Source of the DNA: Candidatus Poseidoniaceae archaeon
Lineage (GTDB): Archaea > Thermoplasmatota > Poseidoniia > Poseidoniales > Poseidoniaceae
Direction: 5' to 3'
Length of the DNA stretch: 64,000 bases
Assembly: GCA_949372875.1 (NCBI GenBank)
Contig: CASIAW010000007.1
Coordinates: forward strand, 24,736 to 88,735
The notes under the pieces are model-generated. The model was not told the DNA's origin. It saw nothing but the letters and a program-made list of their open reading frames with translations, and did not search any database. Made by a program: the position numbers and the translations under genes. Below are positions 24,801-55,054 of this stretch, piece after piece (the first letter of the stretch is position 1; each line of letters begins with the position of its first letter).

Positions 24801-25287
24801 CAACCAAATACAGCGACCAACCGGACTGAACCGACGAGTAGGATTGTTGCCCCCCGTCAAGGGAACCAACGTAGACATTCCCCTGTTCAGTTGTCCAGCA
24901 TGCATCAAAGCCTTCATCATGACTGAGTTGAATATCTGGGCGGCCCATTGTTTCATTTGGCAACATCACAAGCATTTCAGCCATCCAGAGATCTAATGCT
25001 GACTCTTCCCGAACCGTTGCATCATCTAATCCGTCGAAAGCAAGGTTGGTTCCTGCAAAATCATGGCTATATGAGTTATTGAGAGGGACATAATCGCTTG
25101 AAGAAGAAACAATGTTCTCATTAAACTCTAAGCCAGATTCTGTAGGATATTGCACCAAAGGAGAGAAGAGATGCACGACAAACAAAAAAGTGAGCAGCAA
25201 TGAAACTATTGGAAAAGGTCTGCTCGCCGCTGCCGCCATGCAACCTTGTCGGCCGGCTTCCTTGAAAACGCTTCTTGAAGATTGCAT
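18868..25287 (-). CDS. Giant (~2,139 aa) type-I membrane surface protein with integrin-alpha-like FG-GAP beta-propeller repeats, thrombospondin type-3 (TSP3) Ca-binding repeats, a TM helix and a poly-Asp plus Pro-rich cytoplasmic tail
   Basis: The predicted signal peptide is MAAAASRPFPIVSLLLTFLFVV, from ATG 25239, with alternative starts at 25287 and TTG 25425. At least six FG-GAP-like repeats (e.g. ...DFNGDGIVDIAVG...) form the propeller. Many DxDxDGxxDxxDxCP TSP3-like repeats follow. The TM is IIIAVVAGMVVLLVVAVILL, followed by RRQGDDYDYDDDDDDDWDDDDDDD and then a PxxP-rich tail. Confidence 0.85.
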   Translation of the reverse strand: MQSSRSVFKEAGRQGCMAAAASRPFPIVSLLLTFLFVVHLFSPLVQYPTESGLEFNENIVSSSSDYVPLNNSYSHDFAGTNLAFDGLDDATVREESALDLWMAEMLVMLPNETMGRPDIQLSHDEGFDACWTTEQGNVYVGSLDGGQQSYSSVQSGWSLYLVDSVTPSNASSLVDCALAVNEDGRQYVLYADGSNLKSAHIAYPNSVFSELSWQKITIRYDVGPTDIEMVLLPNQLEYAVFRDVNGSLWQLNYSGNLWYHDLLDVGPIGHSIELEMDDNGVAHLLYTAGEEVRLIRYDGSTYDRRVLVRDSNLGTHIGMGLDSNAVEQIATTSVVDDGSGNLITNVQLLRSLSGQDEGRINPVPKFSEIQLPPVQSTASQNLDEGVTFMADFNGDGFDDFIYSEPGYSTEHLEAGRISLSYGSAFGLGHDGSITLCDGTQAGQRFGSGLAVEDFNGDGIVDIAVGSPGWNSSNGDNGKIDIFLGNTSGSLDCLNSWWSVTGNQGEALGWKLEAIAGMNGDGFADLAAVAANHSLVVATIPNEIVHNGKIAIYKGNSSSMDHVRNITQTQESTLLGRSMSGSGDLNGDGFDDLLVSNAASFDSFSGFPRIEIYFGASFGFNGIADQTIDSNVQGKMFGHTIDFIGDINSDGYDDMMFSEVYNGTGGYQVGKVWMYHGSSSGIHSVVPNWTKVGDSANAMLGRMFMGAGDVNEDGYDDILLMQQGATRSGEVDLILGSASGLSSDSELLATGNAQEYRGLSMATHGDIDGDGLNEICLSYRESIPDSSFRVVYQFYSERDWESSTFAFDTDELEFLDVSTSSRGEASMLLSFQNWDSLHFLEHVSDGTATGVWADTVLSTSSPSSTSFAFAGTSSGRPIVLSTEGGQALKMQTTSSYTAVEQSILTSGTMGALLGSALDSEGHQHLAHATSGIGGQQIFASLEDDSGWATTQVATNLNLVDPLVVLTNQSDATTILYRDSTDDQLIMSHDDGGWSAAMIGSQGEVVSSHFPAMYMPNDNLAIALISNDGQNQNLSVWMYDGTSVEPSFISSLTDLSSNIQLAMTDDGTMMVATLTSTGALNLYERQMNQSTWAENSTWNSTLLSQPSGAINSFNLDLNGGSEPAMAVRGDSNSDVIYIRNGSLDWHSFGSQPASTVEGAWDLSSEGGTYVLMTSVGQNNLLTWNSLNTQPTLSSQSSSEYFWNSLSFGDVTATGSVGFYTDSNETLHLAIQDSVLWDVEVLRLYPDADRDLIFDLVDDLPLLANQWSDSDGDGYGDNTLGPLADYCPSTNAPSSLYTYGCLDYDNDGYADVDDACNDDPGDSWIDRMGCDDYDQDGWSNNKFNYLSGDVFIFNWKLALDSDGDGYGDNSGPDCCLTEYDSSQPDGDLFPFNPSQYKDQDGDGWGDNSSDWVDGDNCKWDWGASWRDRNGCLDSDLDGSSDPSNSGGLEWNVSHGADAWPFDSTQWADSDGDGYGDNSSQFATNPDSFPDNIGAAEDNDSDGYPDRWTEFYDITDDVTENDGGGLLLDACPGVTGNSTSPYPGCPDADGDGWMNSEDAFPLEPTQWLDFDSDGFGDNPAGYQADECPTIAGVLEGTSPTEGGTGIGCRFIDDTDDDGDFVPNAEDICPDTDAGLSVNAVGCGENQLDDDDDSVTNDLDICPSTPFGVLVDASGCSNAQLETDDDLDNVSGPADLCPETLYSERSEVDENGCSPSERDSDSDGVKDDVDACPETPSGYPVLADGCTDETAFEQDLDGDGYLGEYTYTLNETSGLREDQQGDAFPTNSSQWSDLDGDGWGDNPDGIYSDYCPTEFGTSTRENIYGCYDDGDGYADFTELPYLAGNATQWFDKDADGYGDNPNGTYPDLCPGTDRALSVSVDENGCAPRQLDSDNDGVNDELDQCKNEPKGEDGYSDGCPLRSSGSDDGSSSALGTSTIIIAVVAGMVVLLVVAVILLRRQGDDYDYDDDDDDDWDDDDDDDSLPFRNSRSAQESAPKRAPVSQAGPSRGPSKGPTKGPQGGPGPSRSPPKGPQGRGPNSPPPQAATPPRSKPSPRGRVSTRPSFDSPSEPKEEEESGAKVRKATFKIDLSLFEDWQTEDRESAADWVRSSLDDGEEERSIMMQLQETGWTAPQSRAIFNMGRSR

Positions 25288-25291
25288 CCAT

Positions 25292-25310
25292 TGACCCCCG
25301 TAGGGGGTCA
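25292..25310. promoter_or_regulatory. 19-bp perfect palindrome TGACCCCCGTAGGGGGTCA in the divergent region between the giant FG-GAP/TSP3 gene and the TPK gene
   Basis: The palindrome has 8-bp arms and a 3-nt centre. It lies about 50-70 nt upstream of the predicted signal-peptide start (25239) of the giant gene. A near-identical copy sits at 30807-30825. Confidence 0.5.
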
Positions 25311-25386
25311 TAACAACAAACTGCAAAACCATCGTTTTGAACCGCTCAATGGATGGGTTTGACAAGATGGACAACCTCGCCGGAGC

Positions 25387-26019
25387 ATGGCGGGAGAGCG
25401 ATATGTGATCATCGCCAATGGTCATTGGCCTAAAGAGGCAATATGGAGACCGTTAGTCGAAGATTCGGACCACGTCATGGCGTGTGATGGAGCGGCCGTT
25501 CAGTGTATTGAACACAAGGTTACAATGAATTCCATTATCGGCGACATGGATAGTCTACCGATTGAAATTGAATCGAAACTCAAACAAGAAGAAGAAATTC
25601 AATTTTTTGAACAAACGATTCAAGAAGAAAACGACTTGGTCAAAGCCATCCATTGGGCGATTAAACAAGGAGCCTCTCAGATCGAAGTATTCGGAATCGA
25701 AGGCGGAGATATGTCCCATCAATTTGCAGCTTTTTTAGCACTGTGTGAAGTCCCATTTCACACTCGATTAAACACATCGCAGGGCACCATTGAACTCATC
25801 CCGAAAAGTGGATATAGAAACTGCTCTATAGAAAAGAAGAGGCTCTTCTCCCTCTTCGCAATAGGGGCTGTTGAAGGCATCAAAACCTCGGGCGCAAAAT
25901 GGAATCTCAAAAACGAAGAGTTACGTCCTGGAACACGAGGCCTCCACAATCAAGTCGAGGGAGAATGTCTTGAGATCAGTATGGATTCTGGTCAACTACT
26001 TCTCTTCTTGAACCGTTGA
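25387..26019 (+). CDS. Thiamine pyrophosphokinase (TPK family)
   Basis: Motifs ACDGAA...IIGDMDSL, QEENDLVKAI and GIEGGDMSHQFAAF fit the TPK fold. The 210-aa length also fits. Confidence 0.7.
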   Translation: MAGERYVIIANGHWPKEAIWRPLVEDSDHVMACDGAAVQCIEHKVTMNSIIGDMDSLPIEIESKLKQEEEIQFFEQTIQEENDLVKAIHWAIKQGASQIEVFGIEGGDMSHQFAAFLALCEVPFHTRLNTSQGTIELIPKSGYRNCSIEKKRLFSLFAIGAVEGIKTSGAKWNLKNEELRPGTRGLHNQVEGECLEISMDSGQLLLFLNR

Positions 26020-35622: not shown

Positions 35623-35958
35623 TCATACGTTGTCCCAGTCAAGGTCAATACCAGCCACAGGCTGAGTGTCAGCCGCTGAGTCTTCAAGAACTGGCTTTGC
35701 TGAATCAAGTATTTCTTCTTCTGCAAGAACCTCTTCTGCACCTTCAACTGCACCACCTTCAAGTTCGTCTCGCTTTTTGTCATCGTTCGAAGAAGGTTTG
35801 AAACCGCCGAATGAATCCCAAGTGTCAATCATTGCAAGTTCAGCCTTCTTTTGACGACGTAATGCAATAACGGCAATAACGACAAGAATACCGACGAAAC
35901 CTGAAGTGGCTGCAACGAACATGGCAACTCTGCTGTCGGATTCCGCCTGCTTCAACAT
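35623..35958 (-). other. Detached C-terminal TM anchor plus acidic cytoplasmic tail of the upstream 1,554-aa adhesin, lying in a different reading frame. This implies a frameshift near 35940-35990.
   Basis: The segment encodes ...AESDSRVAMFVAATSGFVGILVVIAVIALRRQKKAE plus an acidic tail. This is the same TM-RR-acidic architecture seen at the C-termini of the other giant surface proteins. The big ORF instead ends in the nonsensical Cys/Arg-rich tail CHVRCSHFRFRRYSCRYCRYC. Confidence 0.55.
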
Positions 35959-38900
35959 AGAGTGTGATACTGAGAATATCGATCATCGGGTCAGCGCCTG
36001 TCCCGTCGGTTGCAATGACTTTCAAATTCGGACGACCTGCAGCATCAGGGTTCATCTCAACGCTGCCTTCCCAGTAGCCATCACCGTCTTCATCTGTGAG
36101 ATTAAACGCCCAGTTCTGAACGTTAAAAACAACCGTTGCTCGAACACTTTGAGTCGTCCCATCAGGGTCACTCATCATCACTCGAACAGAAAAAGTGTTT
36201 TTCTGTTGTGCAAGAAGTGTATCTGGCATAACGGTGAGATTGGAAAGTTTTGGAAGACTCGATTGAACTGTAATGTTGGTATGAACTTCGTCACTTGCTC
36301 CACGGCTGTCTTCGACATAGAGTGAGAGGTGATGCTGACCCGGAGGGAGTTGAATCGAATCAGTACTCATGGTTGAGACGATTTCATAGTCTCCAGTAAC
36401 CAACCACCGGCGCCATTCACGTGTTTCCATATCACCATCAGCATCGGAAGACTGCTCTTCTAAGACCACAAATTCACCAGGTGCTACCGAGAAGAGATTT
36501 GACGGTTGAAGTAAGAGTGCAACGGGGTCTGATTGTCCAATTGTAAGACTCACGAAGGAGATTTGTTCATCTCCGGTGTCATCTGTAAGAGTGATTTTGA
36601 TGGTGTGCTCTCCAGCAGGAAGAGGTGAAGAGTGAACTTGAGAGGTCGAAACATCACTCAACAATGGCTCAGTGAGCAAATCACTTCGAATGGTCATTGT
36701 AAACGAATCGCCGTCATAATCCACCGATTGGCGAGCGTCCCATTGAATCGGGTAACTGGAAGAATAGGCATCGCCGTCGGCAGGGGAATCGAGAGTTAAT
36801 TGCGGCGCCGAAGTCAGAACTTCAACGGTTCGTGAAACGTTGACTGGCTGATGTATGCCATCATCGAGACTGAGCGTTATCGTGTGCGTTCCAGCACTCA
36901 AACGCCCCTCGAAAATGAGCCAGTCTTCACCCTCTGGAGTAAGGCGTCCGTCCAAATCGCTGTTCCAAACCACAACCAAATATTCCGAGCCGCTGAAAGG
37001 TTCTGAATCAGCACAATGCCAGATTCCATCCATTGGGAAGGTAGAGCATGCAGAATCGTAATCACCCGAAGAATTAGCAGAGAACCATATCAGTTCCGAG
37101 GATACGTACGTTTGTGTGGAAAGTGGAGTTTCAATATTTGACTGTGGAAGCGAATTCTCAACGTCCACTAGCAGCGACGCAACCTTTGTGTCGTTGATAT
37201 GTTCTGGTCGGTTATCGACTACCCTCATTTCTATAGAATGAACGCCTCTGGAAAGGTGTCCAGTCCACGTTTTGCCGGCCTCGGTATTATTCCAGGAGAG
37301 TTGACCGTCAAGGCTTGACCAAAATTCAACCTCAAGAATATCCCCCTCAGGGTCGATAGTTGCCGTTCCATCGAGTGTGACTTCATCTTCACTAGCATTC
37401 CCAAGACGAGTTAATGTGAACACGGGGTCTGGAACTTCATTATACAGTTCTACTGGAATTGTGTACGTGGATGGAGGGTTAATGCCATCAGAGGCGTAAA
37501 TCACTACATCAAAAGTAGAAGGAACTGTTTCAGCCATTGAAAGGTTCATCCAAATTTCTGTGGGACAGTCGGTGATTGAACTTTCTGAGGTAACCGATTG
37601 ATACGAGCGGTCAATCCAACACGACAGCGTATCTCCTTCTGGATCAAAAGTTCCAGTGAGGTTGAAGAGAACATGTTGGGTTCGGGGAATCACAAGTTCT
37701 GACCATGGCGTCAATTCAGGAGTAACCTCGAAGACAATTGTAGGCGCTTGATTGACAAGTTCGATTGTTCGGCTTTCAGAAACACAGTGTCCGTAATCGT
37801 CACATATTTCCAAAGAGATGATATGAATTCCATCTGAGAGAGTGCAATTCCCTGCATGGTTCCCATTTACAGTGAATGGATACCCTCTCGTCACATTGTA
37901 TTGATTTTCAAACCCTTGACCTTGCCCAGTGCAAGATGCCAAAATATCGCCATCGAGGCTACTTGTCCATGCGAAAGTAAGTTCATCGTCATCGAGATCC
38001 CAAGAATCTGAGGCATTGAATTCGACAGAGCCTTGCGATGAGAACACCGAAGAATCAGAGGGAGAAGTCCACATGAGGAAAGGTGGTTGATTGTCGAGAG
38101 GGAGAACGCAATTGACAAATCGGTCTTGATCAAGCGTTACAGTCGTAGAATTGGATACACTGTCGTATCCACAGGAAACGGTCACTGTTGTGAAACTCGA
38201 AGCGCCCGTATTGGTCCATCGTTGACCTATGAAGTTTGGAAGAGAGCGATAACCGAACTCATTGCTCGAGTCTTGAACCGTGCTTTCAAATTGGGAAAAA
38301 GCGGCCTCAACATTTGCCCTTGGAACACCGTTACTGTTGTTATTTATGACCCAGACATTGATGTCATAAGCAACATCTACGGTTGCACCGGATGCGATGG
38401 TTGGATACGATTGGTTCAAATCGATGTTCACAGGTTGATGTAAATGCAAATTCGAATTCGAATCGAGTTGGAGAAGGGTTGAAGTCAGCCCAGAATCTGT
38501 AAATCCGGACCAATTCACCTGACTGTTAACAAATTGTATTGTTCCTGTACAATCCGTGGCAATTGCATTCCCATTTCCGGACAGGTCAAGGTGGTTTGAA
38601 ATCTGAAGACAGCCAGTACCACTGAAAGAGCTGTTACTAAGTTCTGAAGGGTAATTGTTGTTGTTTTGGCCATCCCATTCAATTCCTGAATGGTTACCAT
38701 ACATCATCAATCCATCAATTGAAGCGGCGGCTTGGTTGATGAGTAGTGCAGGTGCTCCCGCCCCACTTCCTCGCTCGGTGTGGATTTCAAGGTCTTCGAT
38801 GTGGATGACGCCTCCTTGTTGACCGAGATTTAAGCCAGAGTTGTCTGCCGCAAGCGGTGCGAAATCTTCTCCATTTTCAGCGAGATAAATATCGCTTAAC

Positions 38901-40504
38901 CAAAGGTCTGCTGAATCACGAATGAGAATACCAGAGCCTGCAGAGCCAGTCACCTCACAATTGGAACAACCAACATCAAGTTGAGGGTGAGTTACAGTCT
39001 TTGAGCGATCGAAAAACATCCCTGCTTTTTGGTCATCCGTATTTCCATTCAATCCGTTGTTCGTCACTGTGAGGTTTTGCAGGTCAGTATCAATATTGTC
39101 GAGGAGATGAACACCAGAATGACCGTTATTCTCCATTGTTGAATCATGAATACTCACTGAGGAATAATCCAAGTATAATCCATCTTCAGAGTTATTGTGA
39201 AGATATAATCCACTTGCTTCCCATTCCGCTTTGTATGAATGTATGCCCGGTCCGACTGAGCCCGATATTTCAAGACCGTCAAACACGGGAGCTGATGTAA
39301 AAATCCACGTAATAGCAAGACCTGCTTTATGCGGACCTTGACCTGGGTCCCCCGAATCGCGAATGGTAAGGTTACGGAACGTCGTCGATGAATCGGCATA
39401 ATACAAACGCACACCTGTCGAGGTGGAGTTTTCAATCAGCGTGTTCTCAAACCAAGCTCCGGTTGAGTTGACATCGATTGCTGCATACGCAATGTTGGCC
39501 GTCTTTGCTCCAACTCCACCAGTGCCTGTTACGGTTAAGTTTGTGAAATCAGCTGTTTCATAATTGGTATAATTGGAGTGGTTTTCTTTATCGACATAAA
39601 CGCCTCGATACATGGAATTAGAGACAGTACAATCTCTGAAGACTGCACGAGTGTATCCACTGTCATCAATATGGCGAACGACGATGCCATAGTCTGAACG
39701 GTCGACAGTCAAGTTGATCAACAACGGCTGGCTATCTTCAATCCAAACGCCTGCTGAAATCTCCCAACTCGAGCCACTGATATTACTCATTACAAGATTA
39801 CGCAGAATGCCACCGGAGCCACCCCAGATGTTGATTGCTCGAGTAAGGTGGTCAGTGAAGGTGGCACCGTCGACAATTGGAGTCGAACCAGAACCAATCG
39901 ATAAGCCCAAACCGTATCTCCAATCACCTTGGAAAGGGAGAACTCGTCCCGCTTGGTTGATGACTAAATCATATATTTGCGGTGCAGAATTGCTGAACAT
40001 GTCAATGCCAACACGGTCTGGATTGAGGATGGTTAAATTATGAATCACTGGGTTTGCACCATACATTGTAATACCGTATATTGAATCTTCAATCGACAGA
40101 TTGTTGAGGACGGAACCTCGATTGTTTGAACTGCTGTTGAATTGGATACCCTCATGGTCAGAACCCGTCAATGAACTCAACGTAACGGGACACGTAACTG
40201 TACCTTCAACTGTTAAACGCCCTTCGACATAAAGTCGAGCACCTGAGCCCATTTCGACTTGTGTACACGCTGAAATAATCAATTCATCAAAGACCGAGAC
40301 CGTATATGTGGAAGTGATTGTGACCGAACCTGTCCACGTTGTCTGAGCACGAGCACTAGTGGACTCTGGTATGAGAGAAATCTCTAATTCAGTCGAAGGC
40401 TCCTCTCCGTCATAAACTGAAGAAGATAGACTCGTGAAAGGGGCTCCGAGCATCAAAAAAAGAACAATCCAAATCCCAAAAGAAGAACGATTTTGAAGGT
40501 CCAT
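35840..40504 (-). CDS. Giant (~1,554 aa) secreted adhesin-like protein with a right-handed parallel beta-helix (pectin-lyase-like/PbH1) region followed by multiple Ig/PKD-like domains. It is probably disrupted near the C-terminus.
   Basis: A signal-peptide-like N-terminus MDLQNRSSFGIWIVLFLMLGAPFTS follows ATG 40504 (alternatives 40528/40645). Periodic N..G....S repeats mark the beta-helix, and long Thr/Ser-rich beta domains follow. The C-terminal 40 aa are non-biological, indicating the frameshift. Confidence 0.8.
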   Translation of the reverse strand: MDLQNRSSFGIWIVLFLMLGAPFTSLSSSVYDGEEPSTELEISLIPESTSARAQTTWTGSVTITSTYTVSVFDELIISACTQVEMGSGARLYVEGRLTVEGTVTCPVTLSSLTGSDHEGIQFNSSSNNRGSVLNNLSIEDSIYGITMYGANPVIHNLTILNPDRVGIDMFSNSAPQIYDLVINQAGRVLPFQGDWRYGLGLSIGSGSTPIVDGATFTDHLTRAINIWGGSGGILRNLVMSNISGSSWEISAGVWIEDSQPLLINLTVDRSDYGIVVRHIDDSGYTRAVFRDCTVSNSMYRGVYVDKENHSNYTNYETADFTNLTVTGTGGVGAKTANIAYAAIDVNSTGAWFENTLIENSTSTGVRLYYADSSTTFRNLTIRDSGDPGQGPHKAGLAITWIFTSAPVFDGLEISGSVGPGIHSYKAEWEASGLYLHNNSEDGLYLDYSSVSIHDSTMENNGHSGVHLLDNIDTDLQNLTVTNNGLNGNTDDQKAGMFFDRSKTVTHPQLDVGCSNCEVTGSAGSGILIRDSADLWLSDIYLAENGEDFAPLAADNSGLNLGQQGGVIHIEDLEIHTERGSGAGAPALLINQAAASIDGLMMYGNHSGIEWDGQNNNNYPSELSNSSFSGTGCLQISNHLDLSGNGNAIATDCTGTIQFVNSQVNWSGFTDSGLTSTLLQLDSNSNLHLHQPVNIDLNQSYPTIASGATVDVAYDINVWVINNNSNGVPRANVEAAFSQFESTVQDSSNEFGYRSLPNFIGQRWTNTGASSFTTVTVSCGYDSVSNSTTVTLDQDRFVNCVLPLDNQPPFLMWTSPSDSSVFSSQGSVEFNASDSWDLDDDELTFAWTSSLDGDILASCTGQGQGFENQYNVTRGYPFTVNGNHAGNCTLSDGIHIISLEICDDYGHCVSESRTIELVNQAPTIVFEVTPELTPWSELVIPRTQHVLFNLTGTFDPEGDTLSCWIDRSYQSVTSESSITDCPTEIWMNLSMAETVPSTFDVVIYASDGINPPSTYTIPVELYNEVPDPVFTLTRLGNASEDEVTLDGTATIDPEGDILEVEFWSSLDGQLSWNNTEAGKTWTGHLSRGVHSIEMRVVDNRPEHINDTKVASLLVDVENSLPQSNIETPLSTQTYVSSELIWFSANSSGDYDSACSTFPMDGIWHCADSEPFSGSEYLVVVWNSDLDGRLTPEGEDWLIFEGRLSAGTHTITLSLDDGIHQPVNVSRTVEVLTSAPQLTLDSPADGDAYSSSYPIQWDARQSVDYDGDSFTMTIRSDLLTEPLLSDVSTSQVHSSPLPAGEHTIKITLTDDTGDEQISFVSLTIGQSDPVALLLQPSNLFSVAPGEFVVLEEQSSDADGDMETREWRRWLVTGDYEIVSTMSTDSIQLPPGQHHLSLYVEDSRGASDEVHTNITVQSSLPKLSNLTVMPDTLLAQQKNTFSVRVMMSDPDGTTQSVRATVVFNVQNWAFNLTDEDGDGYWEGSVEMNPDAAGRPNLKVIATDGTGADPMIDILSITLYVEAGGIRQQSCHVRCSHFRFRRYSCRYCRYCITSSKEG

Positions 40505-40619
40505 GTCTTCCGCTGTATGAAAGAGCATTTGAAGGGTTCTATGAAATGTGAGAAACGGTATCATTGAGCCCAAGAGTTTCCTTCGATAGCAATAAGACCG
40601 GTCCGCAATTCGGCTGTTT

Positions 40620-40853
40620 ATGCCCGAAGCGTTTGTGTTGTTCAAAACCCAACCTGCTCACGAGCGAGAAGTCTACCTTTCATTGATGGAACATTCAGCC
40701 GTTGCGGAAGTTCATGCACTTTACGGTGAATTTGATTTAGTCGTTCGTTTGTCTGTGGAAAACTCCCAAAACCTCACCAAAATGTTGATGACCGATTTTC
40801 GCCAAATCCAAGGAGTTAAAGATACTCAAACACTGATTGCAGTGGAATACTGA
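40620..40853 (+). CDS. Stand-alone Lrp/AsnC ligand-binding (RAM) domain protein, 77 aa
   Basis: The protein shows the betaalphabetabetaalphabeta RAM pattern: VLFKTQPAHEREVYLSLMEHSAVAEVHALYGEFDLVVRLSVENSQNLTKMLMTDFRQIQGVKDTQTLIAVEY. It has no HTH. Confidence 0.7.
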   Translation: MPEAFVLFKTQPAHEREVYLSLMEHSAVAEVHALYGEFDLVVRLSVENSQNLTKMLMTDFRQIQGVKDTQTLIAVEY

Positions 40854-47002: not shown

Positions 47003-48067
47003 TCACTCTGGTGGAATTGGAGGCGCATAGCCGCCATTGACTGCTTCTTGGACAAGTGCCATATCAGAGTCAACCATCATTTGAACCAGTTCTTCAAACG
47101 AAGTTCCTGGGACCCATCCAAGTTCTTTCTCTGCAAGAGCAGGATCGCCGATTAGCAAATCAACTTCAGCTGGTCGGAAGAATTTCGGATTTGTACGCAC
47201 ACGGATGTTTCCATTTTGGTCTGTAGCAATGGTGTCTACACCCTCCCCTGACCAAGTAAGATTCATTCCAACATGTGAAAAACCGAGCGTAATCATGTCC
47301 CGAACACTGTGTGTTCGACCGGTAGCAACAACGTAGTCACCAGGTTCATCTTGCTGAAGCATTCTCCATTGCATCTCGACATAATCGCCGGCAAATCCCC
47401 AATCTCGCTTTGCATCGACGTTGCCAATCCAAAGGCATTCATCAAATCCATGGGCGATACGTGCTGCAGTCATCGTAACCTTACGAGTGACGAATTCCAG
47501 TCCACGGCGTGGGCTTTCGTGATTGAAGAGAATACCTGTGCAAGCAAACATATCGTAAGACTCTCGGTAATTACGGGTGATTTCGAATGCGAACACTTTG
47601 GCACATCCATATGGGGAGCGCGGGTGGAACGGAGTCAGTTCTGTTTGAGGAACGTCTCTCACTTTTCCGTATTGCTCAGAAGAACCTGCTTGATAGAAAC
47701 GGCACGTTGGTGCGTGCTTTCGAATTGCTTCAAGGCAACGAAGCGCCCCTAAACCAGTGATGTCTGCAGTCATCATTGGCGAGCGCCATGATTCTGGAAC
47801 AAATGACATTGCACCGAGGTTGTAAAATTCATCTGGTTGGGCGAGAGTCACTGCATTATCAATTGAGTTCTGGTCAGCAAGGTCACCGTTAACCAGTCTA
47901 AAATTATCATTGGTCATCAAGTGATTAATGAGGCTTCGACCAGAGGTTGGTTGAGACACGCGGCGAACCAAGCCATAGACGATGTAGCCCTTTTCCAACA
48001 ACAGTTCTGCAAGGTATGAACCGTCTTGGCCAGTGATTCCGGTTACCATTGCTGTCTTTCCGCTCAT
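47003..48067 (-). CDS. gmd: GDP-mannose 4,6-dehydratase
   Basis: MVTGITGQDGSYLAELLLEKGYIVYGLVRR carries the SDR Rossmann motif. The YxxxK catalytic region and 354-aa length are typical of Gmd. Confidence 0.9.
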   Translation of the reverse strand: MSGKTAMVTGITGQDGSYLAELLLEKGYIVYGLVRRVSQPTSGRSLINHLMTNDNFRLVNGDLADQNSIDNAVTLAQPDEFYNLGAMSFVPESWRSPMMTADITGLGALRCLEAIRKHAPTCRFYQAGSSEQYGKVRDVPQTELTPFHPRSPYGCAKVFAFEITRNYRESYDMFACTGILFNHESPRRGLEFVTRKVTMTAARIAHGFDECLWIGNVDAKRDWGFAGDYVEMQWRMLQQDEPGDYVVATGRTHSVRDMITLGFSHVGMNLTWSGEGVDTIATDQNGNIRVRTNPKFFRPAEVDLLIGDPALAEKELGWVPGTSFEELVQMMVDSDMALVQEAVNGGYAPPIPPE

Positions 48068-48120: not shown

Positions 48121-49470
48121 ATGGCAACTGGAATCCACCTGCTGAGGGAGGATTTGAAGGGGAGTCGCCGGCTGTACGGTCCAATGGCTGAATTGAAAGA
48201 CGGAGTTGGGAGCGGTCTACGCGTTCTCATTGTTCGTGGTTCATTCGCTTCACTGGGAGGTGCTGAACGTGAACTACTGCAGCTCATTCGGGCAACTTCT
48301 CAACGTTGGGATGTGAGTTTAGCGAGTCTTGATTTGACCAAAGATGCTCAAGATTTGCTCAATGATGCAAATGTGCGGCTCCTTTTACCTACAACAGCAA
48401 TGAAGTGGCCAGCAGGCGCTGTTGCTGAAATCATGGCAAAGGCAAGCACATCTGCACAAAAAATGTGGCGGAGCATCGACATTCCTTGGGATGAGTTTGA
48501 TGCAGTTCACATGTCGGTTTGCCGTGGCACCCTCGAACTGCTACCGCTCATCCCTGCTCATCTTCCAGTTCATTACCACTGCCTCGAACCGCCAAGGTGG
48601 TTGTATGAAGATGTGCTTCACCGTCATATTGATGGTACTCCAAAACGCCCACTATGGTTCACAAAAGCACTTTTCACTCGTCAAAGAATTCGAGACCAAA
48701 CTTTTGTTAAAAAACTCCTCAAACGCCCGAAGTCTTCGATTTCAGGAAATTCAATGTGGATACAAAAGCGACTGAATCAAGTCTACGGCATAGCGTGCGA
48801 TAGTGAAAAAGAAAACGGCAAACCACCAAAGCGAGATGCTGGGGGGCGACCTGTTGAAGCAAGCCATGTCATGCATGTTATCGACTGGAAGTTATGGCCT
48901 GAGAAAGCAACCGCAAAGGAATTGAAATCACTCAAAGAAATGGGGACCATACCCGAAGAATACGTAGTAACTGTTGGACGAGTATCTCATGTGAAAGGAA
49001 CCTGGGACACATTACAATCTCTGAAGGATACCGGACTGGCTTTGGTTCAAGTTGGTGGTGGAGATGACGCAGACAAGAGTAAGCTCATCGAAGAGGGAAA
49101 GAGAATTGGAGTTGAAGTAAACTGTATGCCTCGACTTTCGCAGACGCAACTTTGTGCTTTGATCAGAGGTTCTCTGGCGATGGTAAGTCACGCCCATGAT
49201 GAGCCATTTGGACTCACGCCCATTGAAGCGATGGCAATCGGCATTCCTGCGCTCATGGTCGATGAAGGAGGATTTACCTGCACCATGTCACCTGTTGACT
49301 CTGGACGCCTCTTACCTCGAAACGACTTAGGGGCTTGGAAAGCCTCGTATCTTGATTCAAAAGACCCCGTCTTACGCAAGGCTTGGGCCGATGTCGGACG
49401 GCCTTATGTGGAAACGCATTTCACTCTTGAAGTTCAAATCGCTGCCCTTGAACGGATGATGTCTATTTGA
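48121..49470 (+). CDS. Glycosyltransferase family 4 (group 1) with an ~200-aa N-terminal extension
   Basis: The C-terminal motif is HDEPFGLTPIEAMAIGIPALMVDEGG. The start may be an internal Met. Confidence 0.8.
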   Translation: MATGIHLLREDLKGSRRLYGPMAELKDGVGSGLRVLIVRGSFASLGGAERELLQLIRATSQRWDVSLASLDLTKDAQDLLNDANVRLLLPTTAMKWPAGAVAEIMAKASTSAQKMWRSIDIPWDEFDAVHMSVCRGTLELLPLIPAHLPVHYHCLEPPRWLYEDVLHRHIDGTPKRPLWFTKALFTRQRIRDQTFVKKLLKRPKSSISGNSMWIQKRLNQVYGIACDSEKENGKPPKRDAGGRPVEASHVMHVIDWKLWPEKATAKELKSLKEMGTIPEEYVVTVGRVSHVKGTWDTLQSLKDTGLALVQVGGGDDADKSKLIEEGKRIGVEVNCMPRLSQTQLCALIRGSLAMVSHAHDEPFGLTPIEAMAIGIPALMVDEGGFTCTMSPVDSGRLLPRNDLGAWKASYLDSKDPVLRKAWADVGRPYVETHFTLEVQIAALERMMSI

Positions 49471-49501
49471 GATTTATTAAGTGTTGAATACTTCCTTTCA
49501 C

Positions 49502-50158
49502 ATGGAAGAAGAATCTATGCCAAAAAATGTACTTATCGTCGGCACCGGCGGTATTGGAACAACCCTCGTTGAGTTACTTGTACCTGCCTTGGAACGCGTT
49601 CAATTAAAGGCCAAAATCTCGCTTATGGATGGAGATGTTGTGGAAACCTCAAACCTCGGACATCAGCGCTTCTCTCAAGCGAATGTCGGCATGGAGAAAG
49701 TCTCTGCTCTTTCGAGTAAATATGCTGGTGAAACAGAATATGTGGAACTGGTCCCACTGACTGAAAACTTGAGAAGTGCTGAACAACTTGAAGGCTATGA
49801 TTTGGTCGTTGTCTGCGTCGATAGGCCGGAGCCTCGCCGATTGGTTCACGCTCTTGAGATTCCTTGGGTCGACCTGAGGTGTTCTGGAGATGGATGGATG
49901 GTCTTTTCATCTCAGTCAGATTCTGTTCTGGTCGAGCAAATGACTCCCGACCATGAACCGATGAGTTGTCAAGTCCAAGGTGCATTGGATGCAGGGAATC
50001 TCGAATTTGGATTTTCGATTGCAGGAACTTTTGGAGCCCAGTGGCTTCTTCAACACCTTCGTGAAAGAAAATCACCCATGCAATCTATGGGAAGTCTCAC
50101 GTATGGTCAATTCGAGTTTCCGCGCTTGAAGAGCAATACAGTGGAGGTGAAGGCATGA
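49502..50158 (+). CDS. Minimal ThiF/MoeB/E1-like adenylyltransferase (~219 aa)
   Basis: The Rossmann motif VLIVGTGGIGT is followed by the E1 signature ISLMDGDVVETSNLGHQRF (compare DxDxVExSNLNRQ), then DLVVVCVDRPEPRRL and PWVDLRCSGDGWMVF. The ORF track starts at GTG 49481; the ATG at 49502 or 49517 is more likely. The stop overlaps the next start (ATGA). Confidence 0.7.
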   Translation: MEEESMPKNVLIVGTGGIGTTLVELLVPALERVQLKAKISLMDGDVVETSNLGHQRFSQANVGMEKVSALSSKYAGETEYVELVPLTENLRSAEQLEGYDLVVVCVDRPEPRRLVHALEIPWVDLRCSGDGWMVFSSQSDSVLVEQMTPDHEPMSCQVQGALDAGNLEFGFSIAGTFGAQWLLQHLRERKSPMQSMGSLTYGQFEFPRLKSNTVEVKA

Positions 50159-50706
50159 TATTCATCCCTGCTCTCGAACAGTTAGATGTGACCCAAGAGG
50201 TTTGGGACCACGTCACAGAGATGGCAAAACAAAGAAACATCGAGGATGAAGTGTTACTTGACATCCAACATCGTGCATCGAAACAAGGTCGTTGGGATGT
50301 TGTCTATGCAATTTCTTATCTTGCTGGACTTGAAACATCCGTGCTCATTGATGCGGAAAATGTCATTTCAATAGATTGGGGGACTTCTGGACAAGTCCAA
50401 CTCTCACCTCCTGTTGGATGTATTGCCCCATTCAAACTCTGGGTTCATACCCATCCCGGATTTTCTGCATACTGGTCAGGAACGGATACTCGCAGCCTGT
50501 CAATCGGGCTTGGAATTGTTGAGAAGGCAATGGTTCTTGGATCACCTGGAATAAAGTGCACGCATAATGCGACCATGTTGCCCCTCTCCTCAAGCTCGCT
50601 ACGTATTTCGGAAACAGGGCCGTTGAGCGAATGGTCTGATGAAGAAGTGATTCAATGGGAAGACTGGTATGCTCAACATTTCAATAGCGATGAGGTGACA
50701 CAATGA
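50155..50706 (+). CDS. JAB/MPN (JAMM) family metalloprotease (183 aa)
   Basis: The JAMM motif WVHTHPGFSAYWSGTD (HxHx7SxxD) sits with an upstream acidic residue context. The gene is translationally coupled to the flanking genes by ATGA overlaps at both ends. Confidence 0.7.
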   Translation: MIFIPALEQLDVTQEVWDHVTEMAKQRNIEDEVLLDIQHRASKQGRWDVVYAISYLAGLETSVLIDAENVISIDWGTSGQVQLSPPVGCIAPFKLWVHTHPGFSAYWSGTDTRSLSIGLGIVEKAMVLGSPGIKCTHNATMLPLSSSSLRISETGPLSEWSDEEVIQWEDWYAQHFNSDEVTQ

Positions 50707-50942
50707 CTGGCGTTCGCAAACCAAAAGATGAGGCCGAAGAGCGACGTGCACGCATTGCTATTGCACAAGGCAAGGGTATGTCATTACCTGCTTTTATCGA
50801 AGATATTCTGAATGAAAAACCGGAAGAGGAATTTGTCGATGCAGTCCGAAACCGCATCGCATTTGCTCATGAGCAAGATGAAACAATTGACATTGTTACA
50901 CTGGTTAAACAGATGGCTGAGATTCAGGACCAGTGGGCTTAA
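50703..50942 (+). CDS. Small (79 aa) protein, possibly ribbon-helix-helix (CopG/ParD-like); third gene of the E1-like/JAB operon
   Basis: The segment RIAIAQGKGMSLPAFIEDILNE looks like an RHH beta-strand followed by a helix. There is no C-terminal GG, so it is not an obvious Ubl. The start shares an ATGA overlap with the JAB stop. Confidence 0.45.
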   Translation: MTGVRKPKDEAEERRARIAIAQGKGMSLPAFIEDILNEKPEEEFVDAVRNRIAFAHEQDETIDIVTLVKQMAEIQDQWA

Positions 50943-53078
50943 TCACGAATTTGAATAGGTCGGCTTTCGACCTTCAATCAATGCCGAGAGTCCCTCAAGT
51001 GAATCAGCAGTCGAGAAAATCTCAGTAAGTCCGTCGAGTTCGAATTGCAATCCTTGTGCTAGGTCTGTATGTCCACTTTCATCGATGAGCGCACTTGCCA
51101 TCTTTAGGGCATGAGGAGCCGTACGAGAAAGAGATTTGAGTTGACGGCCAACATTCCTGTCTTCTGCATCAAAGCCGTCTGGACACTTTCCTGCCATCAA
51201 ATCAGACATGTTTTCATCTGCGAAAAAAGAACGTGCAAAAGAGGCGACTGCACTGTCTGGATGTGCTGGAACACCCGGGTATTTGTTGTCGGGTTTACCA
51301 CTCTTGGCGAGTTGAGAAACGCAAGCATTGACGCCTGAGACATCGACAAGGTGAGTAAGCAATCCAAGATCAGCAGCAGTTGAAGCATCCATGAAATTAC
51401 CAGCTAAAACAGCCCAGCGCGCTGCTGGAATACCGCTGATTCGGGCAGGTCGTTGTGAGCCCCCGAGCCCAGGATAAATTCCAATCGAGGTTTCGGGGAA
51501 GCGGAATTGTGTGCGACGTGTACCAATCCGATAATCACACGCCAGTGCTAATTCAAGGCCGCCACCAAGCGCAAGTCCAGTCGTCAAAGCAACAGTGGTC
51601 TTGCCTGAGGATTCGAGTTTATCGAGTACAACATGCCCATTGGTGGTAAATTCAACAATGTCTGGTATTGCATCTGCGTGTATTTTATCGACAAAGAATT
51701 TGACATCAGCACCTGCGACAAATGCCTTCCCTGCACCGTCCAATACAATCGTGTGAACCGAATCATTGGCGTTGATTTTATCCAATGCGACACCAAGTTG
51801 AGACACAACGGTTTCATTGAGAGCATTCATTGCTTCAGGGCGGTTAATGGTAACGGTAGCAATTCCATTTTCAATGGCTGTATCCACGGTCGAGAAAGAC
51901 CAATCTTCATCACCTTGTTCGACGAAAAATTCAGGGACATTCCATGCACGGGATGGGTCTGCTTCAGCAGCCAAATCAGCATAGGATTGAGCCATTTGGC
52001 ACGAGGCTTGAACGCCGACTTTGTTCATCAACTCAAACGGCCCTCGAGCCCAACGCAAGCCAACTTTAGCACCGCGATCCACATCTTCCATGGAACAAAC
52101 ACCTTCATCAACAATTTGAGCAGCGACGCCGAATACGACTCCATACAAGCGTTCTGAAACAGTGGTGTATTGCTCATCAGAATAAGATTCTTCACCTTCG
52201 ATACTCCAGTGCTCATTTGCATCAATCAGATTTCGAAGGTTTTGAGCCCCGATATATCGGGGAGTGTGCAACTGTTCCGCCAAATAATCAGTCGAGTGGA
52301 GTGCAATCGGTGGACCGGTGAGATTCATCAATCCAAACGGCCCAAGACCAATACGGAAGGCTTTACGGGCAGCAGCATCAATCTGAGCAGCAGTAGCAAC
52401 GCCCTCCTCCAAAAGAAGGCACGCCTCATTCAACCAAGGTACGAAGAAACGATTGACTACAAACCCTGGACGATCTGCACATACGATGACGACTTTGCCG
52501 AGCATTTTGCAGTATTGAACTACTTTTTCAACAGTTTCCGGACTCGAAGATTGAGCAGGAATTACTTCGACAAGTCGGTTTTTAGCAGGATGGTAAAAGA
52601 AATGCAAACCAACAAATCTGTCCGCTCGACCTGTCGCTTCTGCCAGTGCATTGACCGATAGTGAAGATGTGTTTGATGCAAGAATTGTATCAGGGCCACA
52701 TGCTTTGTCAAGGGTGTTAAAAACTGCAGTTTTAATGTCGAAATCTTCGAAAACCGCTTCGATGACCAGATCAGTATCAATCGCCGTATTTTCAACACCA
52801 ACAACACCGGTAATTCGCCCTTGAATGGCTTCGACTTGTGCTGGAGAAAAGATTCGTCGTTCAACAGCTTCAGAAAGGAAATCTCGAATAATTCCTTGGC
52901 CTCTATCAACCCATTGTTGTTCTCGGTCGACCATTTGAACATCAAATTCTTCTTGAGCGGTTTTCTGAGCAATACCTGAGCCCATGTTCCCTGCACCGAC
53001 TATGGCTACGCGTTGAATAGGTTGCATGACCTTGCCAACAAAACTCGACTCAAGAACACTGCGGAGAGATGTTCTCAC
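50943..53078 (-). CDS. Fused 3-hydroxyacyl-CoA dehydrogenase (N-terminal) / enoyl-CoA hydratase (C-terminal) beta-oxidation multifunctional protein
   Basis: The N-terminal motif VAIVGAGNMGSGIAQ marks the NAD-binding HAD domain. A C-terminal crotonase fold carries the oxyanion-hole motifs (AGADVKFF...). The domain order is reversed relative to E. coli FadB. Confidence 0.9.
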   Translation of the reverse strand: MRTSLRSVLESSFVGKVMQPIQRVAIVGAGNMGSGIAQKTAQEEFDVQMVDREQQWVDRGQGIIRDFLSEAVERRIFSPAQVEAIQGRITGVVGVENTAIDTDLVIEAVFEDFDIKTAVFNTLDKACGPDTILASNTSSLSVNALAEATGRADRFVGLHFFYHPAKNRLVEVIPAQSSSPETVEKVVQYCKMLGKVVIVCADRPGFVVNRFFVPWLNEACLLLEEGVATAAQIDAAARKAFRIGLGPFGLMNLTGPPIALHSTDYLAEQLHTPRYIGAQNLRNLIDANEHWSIEGEESYSDEQYTTVSERLYGVVFGVAAQIVDEGVCSMEDVDRGAKVGLRWARGPFELMNKVGVQASCQMAQSYADLAAEADPSRAWNVPEFFVEQGDEDWSFSTVDTAIENGIATVTINRPEAMNALNETVVSQLGVALDKINANDSVHTIVLDGAGKAFVAGADVKFFVDKIHADAIPDIVEFTTNGHVVLDKLESSGKTTVALTTGLALGGGLELALACDYRIGTRRTQFRFPETSIGIYPGLGGSQRPARISGIPAARWAVLAGNFMDASTAADLGLLTHLVDVSGVNACVSQLAKSGKPDNKYPGVPAHPDSAVASFARSFFADENMSDLMAGKCPDGFDAEDRNVGRQLKSLSRTAPHALKMASALIDESGHTDLAQGLQFELDGLTEIFSTADSLEGLSALIEGRKPTYSNS

Positions 53079-53915
53079 TCAGCGGTAAGCGTGAAAAGAC
53101 ATTCGACCTTGATTAATCGTCTGTCTAAACGGTCCACGGCCAGTGAACATTCCCTTGATTGAGGAGAATAACCGAACGGGGAGTGAATAACGAATCCACG
53201 GGTTCTTTGGGTAGACAACTTCCACTCTTGAGAAGCCCAAATCCTTGAGCATGCCTTTCATAGCACCCACATTTGGAGCCCAATAATTTGTATCATCGCT
53301 GTTGAAAGAATCTCCCGGATAATAGACCATTGAAGGTTTCCAGCGATGCAAGTCATCTACAGCAGTCTCAATGATGAGCAATTCTTTGCAGACATTGGCA
53401 GCCACACGAAGACCAGCCATTGGGTCTTGAAGGTGATATAAGACTCCGAGGAACATGACAACATCAAATTCACCAACATTGTCAGGTGACACATCCATCG
53501 CGTCAATATCCAATGATTCGACTTTCGAATTCAGTGCTTTATGAGCGAAATTAAAACCATCTTTCGTCCCCCATCCAGGGCCACTCCAACAGAAATGATC
53601 GGTTGCCAGAACTCGCTTAGCACCAGCCTTTTCTGCTTGGAAAGAGAAAAATCCATCCCAAGAACCGATGTCAAGAACGGTTTTACCGCTCAAATCTTTC
53701 GGGAGGCAAATCTGTTCGAGTTTTGCCATGGAAGCATCTAATCCGGGCGTAACAATGCCGTCGTTAAGAGGGATTGAGTGAAACCATTTGATTGAATCCA
53801 TTCCGTCAGGGGACGTCTCTCCGGCCATGCTCGACGACGCTCTGCTTCTACATATGAGCATATTGTTCACGAAATGACTTACAACGAATCGTAAACTTCG
53901 GCCATTCGAAGACAA
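53079..53915 (-). CDS. Class I SAM-dependent methyltransferase
   Basis: Motif I is VLDIGSWDGFFSFQAEKAGAKRVLATD and the post-I acidic residue is present. The start is probably internal (~53828) because the long ORF overlaps the upstream GT by 37 nt. Confidence 0.7.
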   Translation of the reverse strand: MSSNGRSLRFVVSHFVNNMLICRSRASSSMAGETSPDGMDSIKWFHSIPLNDGIVTPGLDASMAKLEQICLPKDLSGKTVLDIGSWDGFFSFQAEKAGAKRVLATDHFCWSGPGWGTKDGFNFAHKALNSKVESLDIDAMDVSPDNVGEFDVVMFLGVLYHLQDPMAGLRVAANVCKELLIIETAVDDLHRWKPSMVYYPGDSFNSDDTNYWAPNVGAMKGMLKDLGFSRVEVVYPKNPWIRYSLPVRLFSSIKGMFTGRGPFRQTINQGRMSFHAYR

Positions 53916-55054
53916 AATCGACTTTGGTCGAATCGTGATGCAAATTCAATCAGACCTGAACGAGGTTTTGGCCAAACGTGTCCCTCATCCGCCTTGGTGC
54001 GGCTTTGCCAATTTGAATAGACTGAAAGGAGAGCTTCTCTCCAAGCCTCTGTATCTTCGGGGTCAAGACATGTATCATCAGGCATCAACTCATTATGTGA
54101 AGGAAGGTTTGAGCATAAAACAGGGGTGCCACAGGCCATAGCCTCAAGTGGGGGGTAACCGAATCCTTCGCTAGCGCTTGGGAAAAGGAGGGCCTCACTG
54201 GCATGGCGTAAATCCATGAGGGCATCGCTCGAGAGATGACCTCCATAGGAGACCCAATTGTTCACGTCGTATTCACGAGCAAGATGGGAGGCTGATAGAC
54301 CGCCATAAGGGCACTTTTCATTTCCTACATGGTGAACGATAATGTTCTGTTTCATCTCTTCATCCAGCCCACCTATTAATTGACAGAGGAATTTTAGGCG
54401 TTTCCGCGGTGCGTGACTTCCAACAACCAACAGATGGCATCCTTTGGATAAATTCGATGCTGGCAGAGAGGCTACGTTACTCGAACGTCCTTTGGGACTG
54501 AAAGATTGAAGATCTAAACCGAGAGGGACACATACTGATTTGATACCTGGGAAATACTTCATGCATGCTGATAAAGTCGCTTGAGAATCACATACCAAAA
54601 GATCTGCTCGTGCCAAACCTGCACGTAGTTTCACCAAGTCTCGACGCCGATACCATCGCGGATTGTGCTCCCCGACTTCGATGGATTCCTCTCCAACATT
54701 AATTCGCTCTGGAAAGAAATGGAACAAATCATGCACAGTGACAACAACTGGGATAGAACAGTCTTCAGGAATAAGGTGTGCTTGTTCTTGGTCTGTAATG
54801 TGAAGAATATCGAATTCATGCTGCTTTTTGAGAATCTTTGCTATACGTCTTGGGTGTGAAAACCAGCGTTTAAACAAGCGTGAGAAAGGATTCATCCTCT
54901 TTTTAATTGGGTATTCGCAAATCAATGTATTCGCCCATCCCTGAATGTTGCCATGGGTCAGTGAAGTGACAAGGTTGTGATGGGCGCCGCCAATACCGGT
55001 ATTGACGCCTAAGGCACCGCCTCGTACGAGCAACACCTGTTTGGCCATACTCAC
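53879..55054 (-). CDS. Glycosyltransferase family 4 (group 1)
   Basis: The C-terminal motif is FPSASEGFGYPPLEAMACGTPVLCSN. Confidence 0.8.
   Translation of the reverse strand: MSMAKQVLLVRGGALGVNTGIGGAHHNLVTSLTHGNIQGWANTLICEYPIKKRMNPFSRLFKRWFSHPRRIAKILKKQHEFDILHITDQEQAHLIPEDCSIPVVVTVHDLFHFFPERINVGEESIEVGEHNPRWYRRRDLVKLRAGLARADLLVCDSQATLSACMKYFPGIKSVCVPLGLDLQSFSPKGRSSNVASLPASNLSKGCHLLVVGSHAPRKRLKFLCQLIGGLDEEMKQNIIVHHVGNEKCPYGGLSASHLAREYDVNNWVSYGGHLSSDALMDLRHASEALLFPSASEGFGYPPLEAMACGTPVLCSNLPSHNELMPDDTCLDPEDTEAWREALLSVYSNWQSRTKADEGHVWPKPRSGLIEFASRFDQSRFCLRMAEVYDSL

Follow-up and report, generated by a model that had tools for sequence, protein, structure and literature searches.

Within a 64,000-nt stretch from a Candidatus Poseidoniaceae archaeon (Marine Group IIa, MGIIa), referred to here as the window and providing the coordinates used throughout, three short genes follow one another on the forward strand: an E1-like adenylyltransferase of the ThiF family (E1), a JAMM metalloprotease (JAB) and a small helical protein. 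An earlier reading of this DNA, made from the letters alone (the sequence-only reading), had described the three genes as chained by ATGA stop/start overlaps, and both overlaps are present, at 50155-50158 between E1 and JAB and at 50703-50706 between JAB and the third gene. The trio and its candidate expression signals are laid out as follows.

49472..49480, + strand: TATA-like box ATTTATTAA, centred ~26 nt 5' of the E1 ATG
49502..50158, + strand: E1-like (ThiF-family) adenylyltransferase, 218 aa (open reading frame, ORF, spanning 49481-50158)
50143..50150, + strand: Shine-Dalgarno-like element GGAGGTGA, within the end of the E1 gene, 4 nt 5' of the JAB ATG
50155..50706, + strand: JAMM/MPN+ zinc metalloprotease, 183 aa, with an N-terminal three-helix extension
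50692..50698, + strand: Shine-Dalgarno-like element GAGGTGA, within the end of the JAB gene, 4 nt 5' of the third-gene ATG
50703..50942, + strand: third gene, small four-helix partner protein, 79 aa

We placed the start of E1 at the ATG at 49502, since both a conserved M-[EN]-E-E start and the spacing to the TATA-like box support it; the codon at 49499 is His. The GGAGGTGA and GAGGTGA elements may serve as ribosome-binding sites for the gene that follows each of them. An EV[KSLM]A C-terminus is kept across the aligned E1 homologues, and we attribute this conserved ...EVxA ending to the Shine-Dalgarno-like GGAGGTGA, which encodes those residues; EV-type C-termini were also found among JAB homologues in a 24-sequence alignment. 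The ...EV.. ends of both E1 and JAB are thus encoded by the Shine-Dalgarno-like element of the next gene, as if a ribosome-binding site constrained the C-terminus of a protein.

The three proteins of the operon

E1 carries the motifs VLIVGTGGIGT and ISLMDGDVVETSNLGHQRF and matches Pfam ThiF (PF00899) with E 2.2e-17, at 63.5 bits against a cut-off of 28.1, so that its first description stands in all but start and length (218 aa, not 219). The Rossmann G-loop, G14xG16G17xG19, is invariant among E1 homologues, and across 19 of them, down to 43% identity, the same holds for Lys66, Asp107, Arg112/113 and the motif TPDHxPxSC(156)Q. The protein is a minimal form of the enzyme: the N-terminal Arg-finger helix is absent, only ~9 residues precede the G-loop, and there are no CxxC zinc pairs. 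In a HMMER alignment to Uba4 from the PDB, an invariant His54 occupies the place of the Arg of the SNLxRQ motif, with Tyr in the viral copies described below; to our knowledge, all characterised E1s have Arg at this position. The crossover-loop Cys156 of TPDHxPxSCQ is invariant in host E1s, while viral copies have FSCQ, and it presumably corresponds to C187 of MoeB, opposite which it falls in an alignment to an approximate MoeB sequence.

Searches against NCBIfam gave the highest E1 scores for ThiF PRK08644 (46.8 bits, cut-off 159) and PRTRC ThiF (45.9, cut-off 145), followed by MoeB (30.4, cut-off 377) and UbaA (27.9, cut-off 450), and no match to TcdA. No Moa, Thi or Ncs genes were found near the module in the neighbourhoods inspected. 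Because its scores lie far below every NCBIfam equivalog cut-off, E1 is, by sequence comparison, a member of the E1 superfamily and not an orthologue of the housekeeping enzymes MoeB, ThiF, UbaA or TcdA, which answers a question that the sequence-only reading had raised.

Additional domains have been acquired by E1 in several lineages. In the E1 of some closely related MGIIa (L090:256-1272 and L091; P0245, P0254), an inserted HRDC domain of ~110 aa (PF00570, E 2e-18 to 4e-16), a nucleic-acid-binding module, separates the K-loop from the strand after it, with the JAB and 79-aa genes downstream unaltered. E1 reaches 356-360 aa in a further MGIIa lineage through a conserved ~140-aa N-terminal extension that has no Pfam match, and here the upstream glycosyltransferase gene of the GT4 family, described below, is absent (L092:6001-7083; P0224, P0221). 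In two lineages (L097:5130-5999, L103:5991-7004) the C-terminus of E1 runs on into a Myb/SANT-like helix-turn-helix (HTH) segment, W-[ST]-x-x-E-[DE]...R-R-h, which forms a separate 73-aa ORF between E1 and JAB in one Thalassarchaeaceae contig (L099:4954-5175); Pfam support for this segment is weak, with several HTH families at E 0.03-0.3.

JAB was first described as having a canonical HxHx7SxxD JAMM motif, and alignment bears this out: the active site, E60...H98-T-H100-x7-S108-x2-D111, is invariant in 24 sequences down to 40% identity and so is not degenerate. The protein has a JAB/MPN fold that resembles those of Cap3 and BilC, and scores only 15.9 bits against Pfam Prok-JAB. Its homologues in databases, with Poseidoniales and Euryarchaeota archaea among the sources, are all annotated as 'hypothetical' and carry no Pfam domain.

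The third protein does have the 79 aa first ascribed to it; its proposed ribbon-helix-helix (RHH) identity we dropped, since its AlphaFold2 model (pLDDT 76) consists of four helices behind a disordered N-terminus and it matched no RHH family or structure. No significant match was found in fold, Pfam or PDB searches. Homologues are 78-80 aa long, their start codons overlap the JAB stop as ATGA in nearly all loci, and they share a conserved N-terminal R-x-P-x-D-[DE]-x-E motif and the usual ending ...QWA. Profile hidden Markov model (HMM) searches also placed homologues after the JAB gene in Thalassarchaeaceae-like and other lineages (E 4e-21 and 7e-10). In MGIIa loci the last residue is always small (A, V, I or S), while outside MGIIa the C-terminus differs (...YDLM, ...IQQA, ...EANA). 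We considered whether this protein might itself be the E1 substrate through its C-terminus and rejected this as the main model: the ending is unconserved outside MGIIa, and it is a poor fit for an E1 channel because the model has helix up to the penultimate residue.

Conservation of the trio and its neighbourhood

By scanning one genome per GTDB species for JAB, we found a relative in 142 species and kept 80 loci, from metagenome-assembled genomes labelled Poseidoniales/Poseidoniaceae or by older or wider archaeal names, namely Euryarchaeota, Methanobacteriota or Thermoplasmatota. The trio recurs in these ~80 Poseidoniaceae (MGIIa) loci, nearly all of which have an overlap of exactly 4 nt at both junctions. 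Recurrence of this kind across the loci goes far beyond what chance would give, and comparison of neighbourhoods confirms that the genes are co-conserved in related genomes. The trio is convergent with the same gene, encoding a 3-hydroxyacyl-CoA dehydrogenase/enoyl-CoA hydratase (3HCDH/ECH), in 72/80 loci, and it is a core operon, apparently of vertical descent, and not a mobile island. In the window, the flanking genes are the following.

47003-48067, - strand: gmd (E 6e-128), divergent from the GT4 gene
48121..49470, + strand: GT4-family glycosyltransferase, 449 aa (Glycos_transf_1 E 3.8e-16), a neighbour that is probably outside the module
50943-53078, - strand: 3HCDH/ECH, convergent with the trio

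The stop codons of the third gene and of 3HCDH/ECH directly abut. On the other side, the GT4 stop codon (49468-49470) is separated from the E1 ATG by 31 nt, slightly more than the 10-30 nt first read for this gap behind a GT4 gene whose identity and strand were given correctly, and the TATA-like box lies inside it. The nearby gmd was also recognised correctly; it lies on the opposite strand and precedes GT4.

A same-strand GT4 gene lies directly 5' of the trio in 46/65 informative MGIIa loci; it is absent, with gmd as divergent neighbour, in 15/65, replaced by Tyw1 in 1/65, and 3/65 have other arrangements. This systematic count led us to reject the idea that GT4 adjacency is unique to the lineage of the window. 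GT4 is missing in locus L028 but present in L038, whose fourth genes are 88% identical. In nearly all MGIIa loci, whether the upstream gene is GT4, gmd or Tyw1, a TATA-like element of the TTTATA, TATATA or TTTAAG type is found ~25-30 nt before the E1 ATG, and there is neither overlap nor coupling between the GT4 and E1 genes. An archaeal TATA box is usually centred ~26-27 nt upstream of the transcription start. Since in the window the box is ~26 nt from the E1 ATG, it is a candidate promoter for a leaderless three-gene transcript, and the operon would be expressed from it independently of GT4. No glycosyltransferase was seen beside the module in loci of sister lineages or with fusion forms, nor within the viral modules examined. 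Taken together, these features are best read as shared synteny and not shared function, and the link to glycosylation suggested by the sequence-only reading is not upheld.

Several neighbours deserve separate mention. Tyw1/Taw1, the tRNA wyosine radical-SAM enzyme, is encoded directly upstream of E1 in one MGIIa clade (L001-L003:6338-7342; L086; L089), overlaps E1 by 4 nt in the L003 gene call, and is within ~2-5 kb in many other loci; this adjacency is probably synteny as well. Beyond 3HCDH/ECH in the window (53079-55054, - strand), two genes share 37 nt, one for a class I methyltransferase (278 aa) and the other, overlapped at its start, for a further GT4 protein (391 aa). This second GT4 is conserved downstream of 3HCDH/ECH in most MGIIa loci, the methyltransferase in the closest relatives only, and the local glycan-gene context consists of gmd, the first GT4, the second GT4 and the methyltransferase. 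Elsewhere in the window are two very large ORFs, at 18868-25425 (- strand, 2185 aa) and 35840-40645 (- strand, 1601 aa).

Ubl-like genes beside related modules in sister lineages and viral contigs

We searched 1.84 billion representative proteins with a profile and recovered 147 JAB relatives. Among them are E1-JAB fusion proteins of 405-408 aa from other marine Thermoplasmatota, which share the NL[HS]HQ and TP..xPASCQ motifs of the E1 family. Beside these and other homologous modules lie genes for small proteins that end in, or close to, Gly-Gly (GG) and resemble ubiquitin-like proteins (Ubls). Their gene orders are given below.

L094-L096 (Thermoplasmatota): protein of 71 aa with the end ...SLQGG-H, followed by the E1-JAB fusion, a helical protein of 86 aa whose gene overlaps it, and a TFB-like zinc-ribbon protein
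L101/L102 (Thalassarchaeaceae by the names of neighbouring genes): 73-aa protein ending ...GLVGG-L, then E1, JAB, an 82-aa protein and a TFB-like protein
L100/L105 (Thalassarchaeaceae, MGIIb): protein ending ...GLIGG-WL, then a Cys-cluster protein of 385 aa, E1, an insert that varies, JAB, an 80-aa protein and a 238-249-aa protein
L097/L098: E1 with a Myb/HTH-like tail, then JAB, a 79-aa protein, a TFB-like protein and a 72-aa protein ending ...IVAG-RA

Counting host and viral modules, the Ubl-like proteins are 66-79 aa long and end in GG with at most two residues beyond it (one lineage has AG-RA instead), and the four small host proteins align as one family. In hhalign comparisons with approximate template sequences, their profile aligned end to end, with the C-terminal GG in register, to ThiS (E 4e-4), ubiquitin (0.016) and MoaD (0.015). 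In PDB profile searches, matches fell mainly in the ubiquitin family and in every case ended at G76; mono-ubiquitin by itself gave E ~1, and the small E-values of polyubiquitin entries are inflated by repeats. Neither Pfam ThiS nor Pfam MoaD matched the family, and a homology search over metagenomes with a single Thalassarchaeaceae Ubl returned 3 close relatives only. Since size, context, GG-X tail and these weak alignments point the same way, the most reasonable reading of the small GG-X proteins is that they are Ubl precursors.

Two further kinds of protein recur in these modules. TFIIB-type zinc-ribbon proteins (PF08271, E 1e-5 to 2e-6, just under the cut-off) adjoin the module in three host lineages outside MGIIa and in the viral contigs that were read (L094:7658-8638, L097:6878-8098, L101:8009-8998, L111:1244-2098, L114:2973-3806). 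A TATA-binding protein (TBP) is a target of sampylation in Haloferax (PMC4895103). The TFB-like proteins could be targets or partners of the module. A Cys-cluster protein of ~316-369 aa, absent from the window, follows the third gene in 11 MGIIa loci (L028:6781-7743 and 10 others); it is homologous to the 385-aa Thalassarchaeaceae partner (L100:749-1906), which precedes E1. These proteins have an invariant N-terminal C-x4-C-x2-C, and the ~316-385-aa family gave no PDB match by profile and no Pfam match. Among the partner proteins scanned, none matched UQ_con or another E2-like Pfam family.

Relatives of the module are also carried by viruses. A scan of viral sequences with the MGIIa JAB alignment gave no match, and the divergent P0343-type JAB retrieved 12 IMG/VR contigs of 16-97 kb (L108-L119). 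All 12 encode both E1 (184-199 aa; HMM E 1e-26 to 1e-31) and JAB, and in 7/12 a Ubl homologue of 66-78 aa lies a few kb upstream, ending in AIVGG, AIVGGQ or AIVGGQQ (E 1e-15 to 1e-20). A ~385-aa protein weakly related to the host Cys-cluster partner is present in 10/12; in L111 and L114, the two contigs whose intervening genes were read, a TFB-like zinc-ribbon protein comes after it. For the third protein, the viral loci gave no homologue. Four contigs were read along their whole length, and in each of them GroES- and GroEL-like genes are situated just 3' of JAB. A GroEL gene is also reported from the replicative gene cluster of magroviruses, which infect MGII (PMC5434244; PMC11706807), and on this ground the contigs are probably magroviruses. 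The main texts of three magrovirus papers (PMC5434244, PMC10160649, PMC11706807) make no mention of ubiquitin, ThiF or JAB, and our literature search found no paper linking Poseidoniales or magroviruses to any of these. Within the GenBank phage collection there was no JAB match, and the E1 matches were only remote and short, with no archaeal-virus record among them. Short E1-like proteins with 25-35% identity to the viral E1 occur in crAss-like and other phages (MT074136.1, MT774378.1, PQ006092.1), annotated as hypothetical, 'thiamine biosynthesis protein' or 'E1 enzyme family protein'.

In MGIIa itself, we looked for a Ubl by GG-tail patterns, tblastn and HMM searches with filters off, and found none, either in the 64-kb window or around ~90 MGIIa loci, whose flanks were covered for up to ~6-8 kb each where the contig allowed. 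Neither an E2 nor a CD-NTase is encoded in the window or in related loci. The observation that neither Ubl nor E2 was visible at this locus therefore extends to the whole window, while the GG-ending Ubl-like ORFs whose existence had been considered turned up beside the homologous Thalassarchaeaceae-like and viral modules.

A candidate E2-less ubiquitin-like system

We propose that the trio supplies the core enzymes of a system that activates and processes a Ubl. E1 would adenylate a GG-ending Ubl, JAB would expose its GG, the helical protein would be a third subunit and no E2 would take part; we give this reading a probability of roughly 0.6. Such a system would be specific to Poseidoniales and related marine Thermoplasmatota. 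The minimal E1 would bind ATP, adenylate the C-terminal glycine of a small beta-grasp Ubl and then probably pass it to the crossover-loop Cys156 as a thioester. The JAMM protease would trim the 1-2 residues that follow the GG of the Ubl precursor, and it may also reverse conjugates. Translational coupling would tie the amount of the 79-aa helical protein to that of the enzymes, beside which it would act as adaptor, regulator or third subunit. As no E2 is present, transfer would be directly from E1, as in archaeal sampylation, or via lineage-specific partners, either the ~320-385-aa Cys-cluster protein or the TFB-like zinc-ribbon proteins. The Ubl of MGIIa, being absent from the operon and the 64-kb window, would be encoded elsewhere in the genome. 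Within this model, protein conjugation is more likely than sulfur transfer as the end use, because no sulfurtransferase or biosynthetic partner is nearby, TFB-like, HTH/Myb-like and HRDC modules recur as partners, and copies of the module are carried by viruses. Among the three options left by the sequence-only reading, a minimal Ubl-type system with its Ubl elsewhere fits best, given the GG-ending Ubl-like genes adjacent to sister and viral modules, though the MGIIa Ubl that it implies was not found.

Several observations weigh against this proposal. Neither the window nor the flanking DNA of the ~90 MGIIa loci yielded a Ubl homologue, and the beta-grasp assignment of the candidates from other lineages is weak at the sequence level (mono-ubiquitin E ~1; hhalign probabilities 3-34%). 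E1 has lost the N-terminal Arg-finger helix and has His or Tyr in place of the canonical Arg, so that its chemistry could differ from that of known E1s. The accretion of HRDC and Myb/HTH-like domains onto E1 hints at a link to nucleic acids that the model leaves unexplained. The odd E1 active site and the accreted nucleic-acid-binding domains are explained by none of the models considered here.

A sulfur-carrier pathway, in which E1 would help form a thiocarboxylate on a ThiS/MoaD-like carrier for a thio-cofactor, thionucleoside or cysteine and JAB would unmask the GG, as Mec+ does for CysO and QbsD for QbsE, would account for ThiF, MoeB and Uba4 being the best NCBIfam and PDB sequence matches of E1, for the Ubl profile aligning best with ThiS (E 4e-4, against an approximate template) and for the residues after GG in the Ubl precursors, which are typical of JAB-processed sulfur carriers such as those of the CysO/Mec+ and QbsE/QbsD pairs. 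We nevertheless consider it unlikely: every E1 score is far under its equivalog cut-off, no rhodanese, sulfurtransferase or ThiG/MoaE/CysM-type partner occurs in any neighbourhood examined, where TFB-like zinc-ribbon, HTH/Myb-like and HRDC modules recur instead, and a whole module on viral contigs beside GroES/GroEL is hard to square with cofactor synthesis. That the chromosomal trio is a virus-host conflict module, which by analogy with Bil and Cap2/Cap3 might intercept, activate or strip a viral Ubl or tag viral proteins, is suggested by the GroEL-carrying viral contigs, which encode Ubl, E1 and JAB of the same families while the MGIIa host module has no adjacent Ubl, by the resemblance of the JAB fold to Cap3 and BilC, and by a weak match of the PADLOC E1-E2 (Cap2-type) models to the E1 domain (E 3.7e-9). 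Those PADLOC models, however, cover only residues 14-124, the generic Rossmann region of E1 (33.7 bits), and JAB and the third protein have no match; there is no E2, CD-NTase or effector; and the trio keeps a single syntenic position, convergent with 3HCDH/ECH, with apparently vertical descent, unlike typical defence islands. We therefore regard such a role as improbable, and the defence module envisaged from the sequence alone does not correspond to a Cap2/Cap3 or Bil operon, given the lack of E2 and CD-NTase and the fixed core-genome position.

A substrate other than a Ubl is a further, rather doubtful alternative: E1 might adenylate a carboxylate in a nucleic-acid modification, as TcdA does on t6A, or the C-terminus of the 79-aa protein or of another peptide, with JAB as an amidohydrolase. 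The noncanonical Arg-to-His active site, the HRDC insertion in some MGIIa E1s (PF00570, E 2e-18), the Myb/HTH-like tail or ORF of other lineages, the nearby Tyw1 (overlapping by 4 nt in L003, within a few kb in many loci) and the invariably small last residue of the third protein (A, V, I or S) would all be at home in such a scheme, but homologous modules contain a GG-terminated Ubl-like gene, Tyw1 adjacency is only one of several variable upstream states, and the third-protein C-terminus is unconserved outside MGIIa and modelled as helical to the penultimate residue. Most improbable of all is a glycan-linked function, with GT4, E1 and JAB acting jointly on a carboxylate of a glycan or glycoprotein. 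The same-strand GT4 in 46/65 informative loci, with gmd and a second GT4 in the region, gives it some appeal, yet 15 loci retain the trio without GT4, L028 lacks the gene that its close relative L038 has, a conserved TATA-like box separates GT4 from E1 with no overlap or coupling between them, and glycosyltransferases are missing beside the module in Thalassarchaeaceae-like loci and fusion forms and within the viral modules.

Compared with characterised systems, the proposed Ubl system most resembles SAMP1-3/UbaA/HvJAMM1 sampylation of Haloferax volcanii in its working mode, both being E2-less. Its E1, in contrast, is not a UbaA orthologue (27.9 bits against 450) and lacks both the zinc CxxC pairs and the Arg-finger helix, and the operon, tightly coupled, also encodes a helical third protein. 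Bacterial Ubl-E1-JAB operons, including E1-JAB fusions (Iyer, Burroughs and Aravind 2006, PMC1779556), share with it the adjacency or fusion of E1 and JAB and the presence of JAB-removable residues after the Ubl GG, as do CysO/Mec+ and QbsE/QbsD. The module differs from these bacterial operons and sulfur carriers in being archaeal and viral, in having no E2-like gene or biosynthetic partner, and in its conserved small helical third component and TFB-like zinc-ribbon and HTH partners. Unlike type II CBASS Cap2/Cap3, it has no E2 domain or gene, CD-NTase or effector and holds a fixed core-genome position; unlike Bil (BilA-D), it shows no separate E2 (BilB) or Ubl (BilA) ORF in the window. Short ThiF-family proteins (PRK08644/thiF_fam2, ~200-215 aa; PRTRC ThiF) are about equally short and score highest in NCBIfam (46.8 and 45.9 bits), but these scores are three-fold under the cut-offs and the module E1 has His/Tyr for the NLxRQ Arg, the TPDHxPxSCQ motif and an obligate coupling to JAB.

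The module is strongly conserved and is not ordinary housekeeping, and it most likely forms the enzymatic core of a Ubl-like system not previously described. More tentatively, and as a possibility that we hold below even odds, Poseidoniales and magrovirus-like contigs may share an undescribed E2-less Ubl conjugation system of His-type E1, JAMM protease and Ubl, whose TFB-like zinc-ribbon and HTH/HRDC partners would point to Ubl control of the transcription or replication machinery and to a contest between virus and host over the modifier. If so, one form of this contest could be that the MGIIa trio, which has no Ubl beside it, acts on a Ubl encoded by the virus.

Archaeal Jab genes are rarely linked to genes of Ubl pathways, with one Jab-E1 fusion noted in methanogen RC1 (Makarova and Koonin 2010, PMC2948915), so that a family-wide, translationally coupled E1-JAMM operon is an unusual and tractable case of an archaeal Ubl system, to which the fused versions and the Ubl-bearing sister and viral versions add further interest. 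As the components are all small and soluble, E1 adenylation, GG-X trimming and the targets of the system should be approachable in vitro without culture of the host. The viral copies would represent a case of archaeal viruses equipped with a complete Ubl-activation module homologous to a core module of their hosts.

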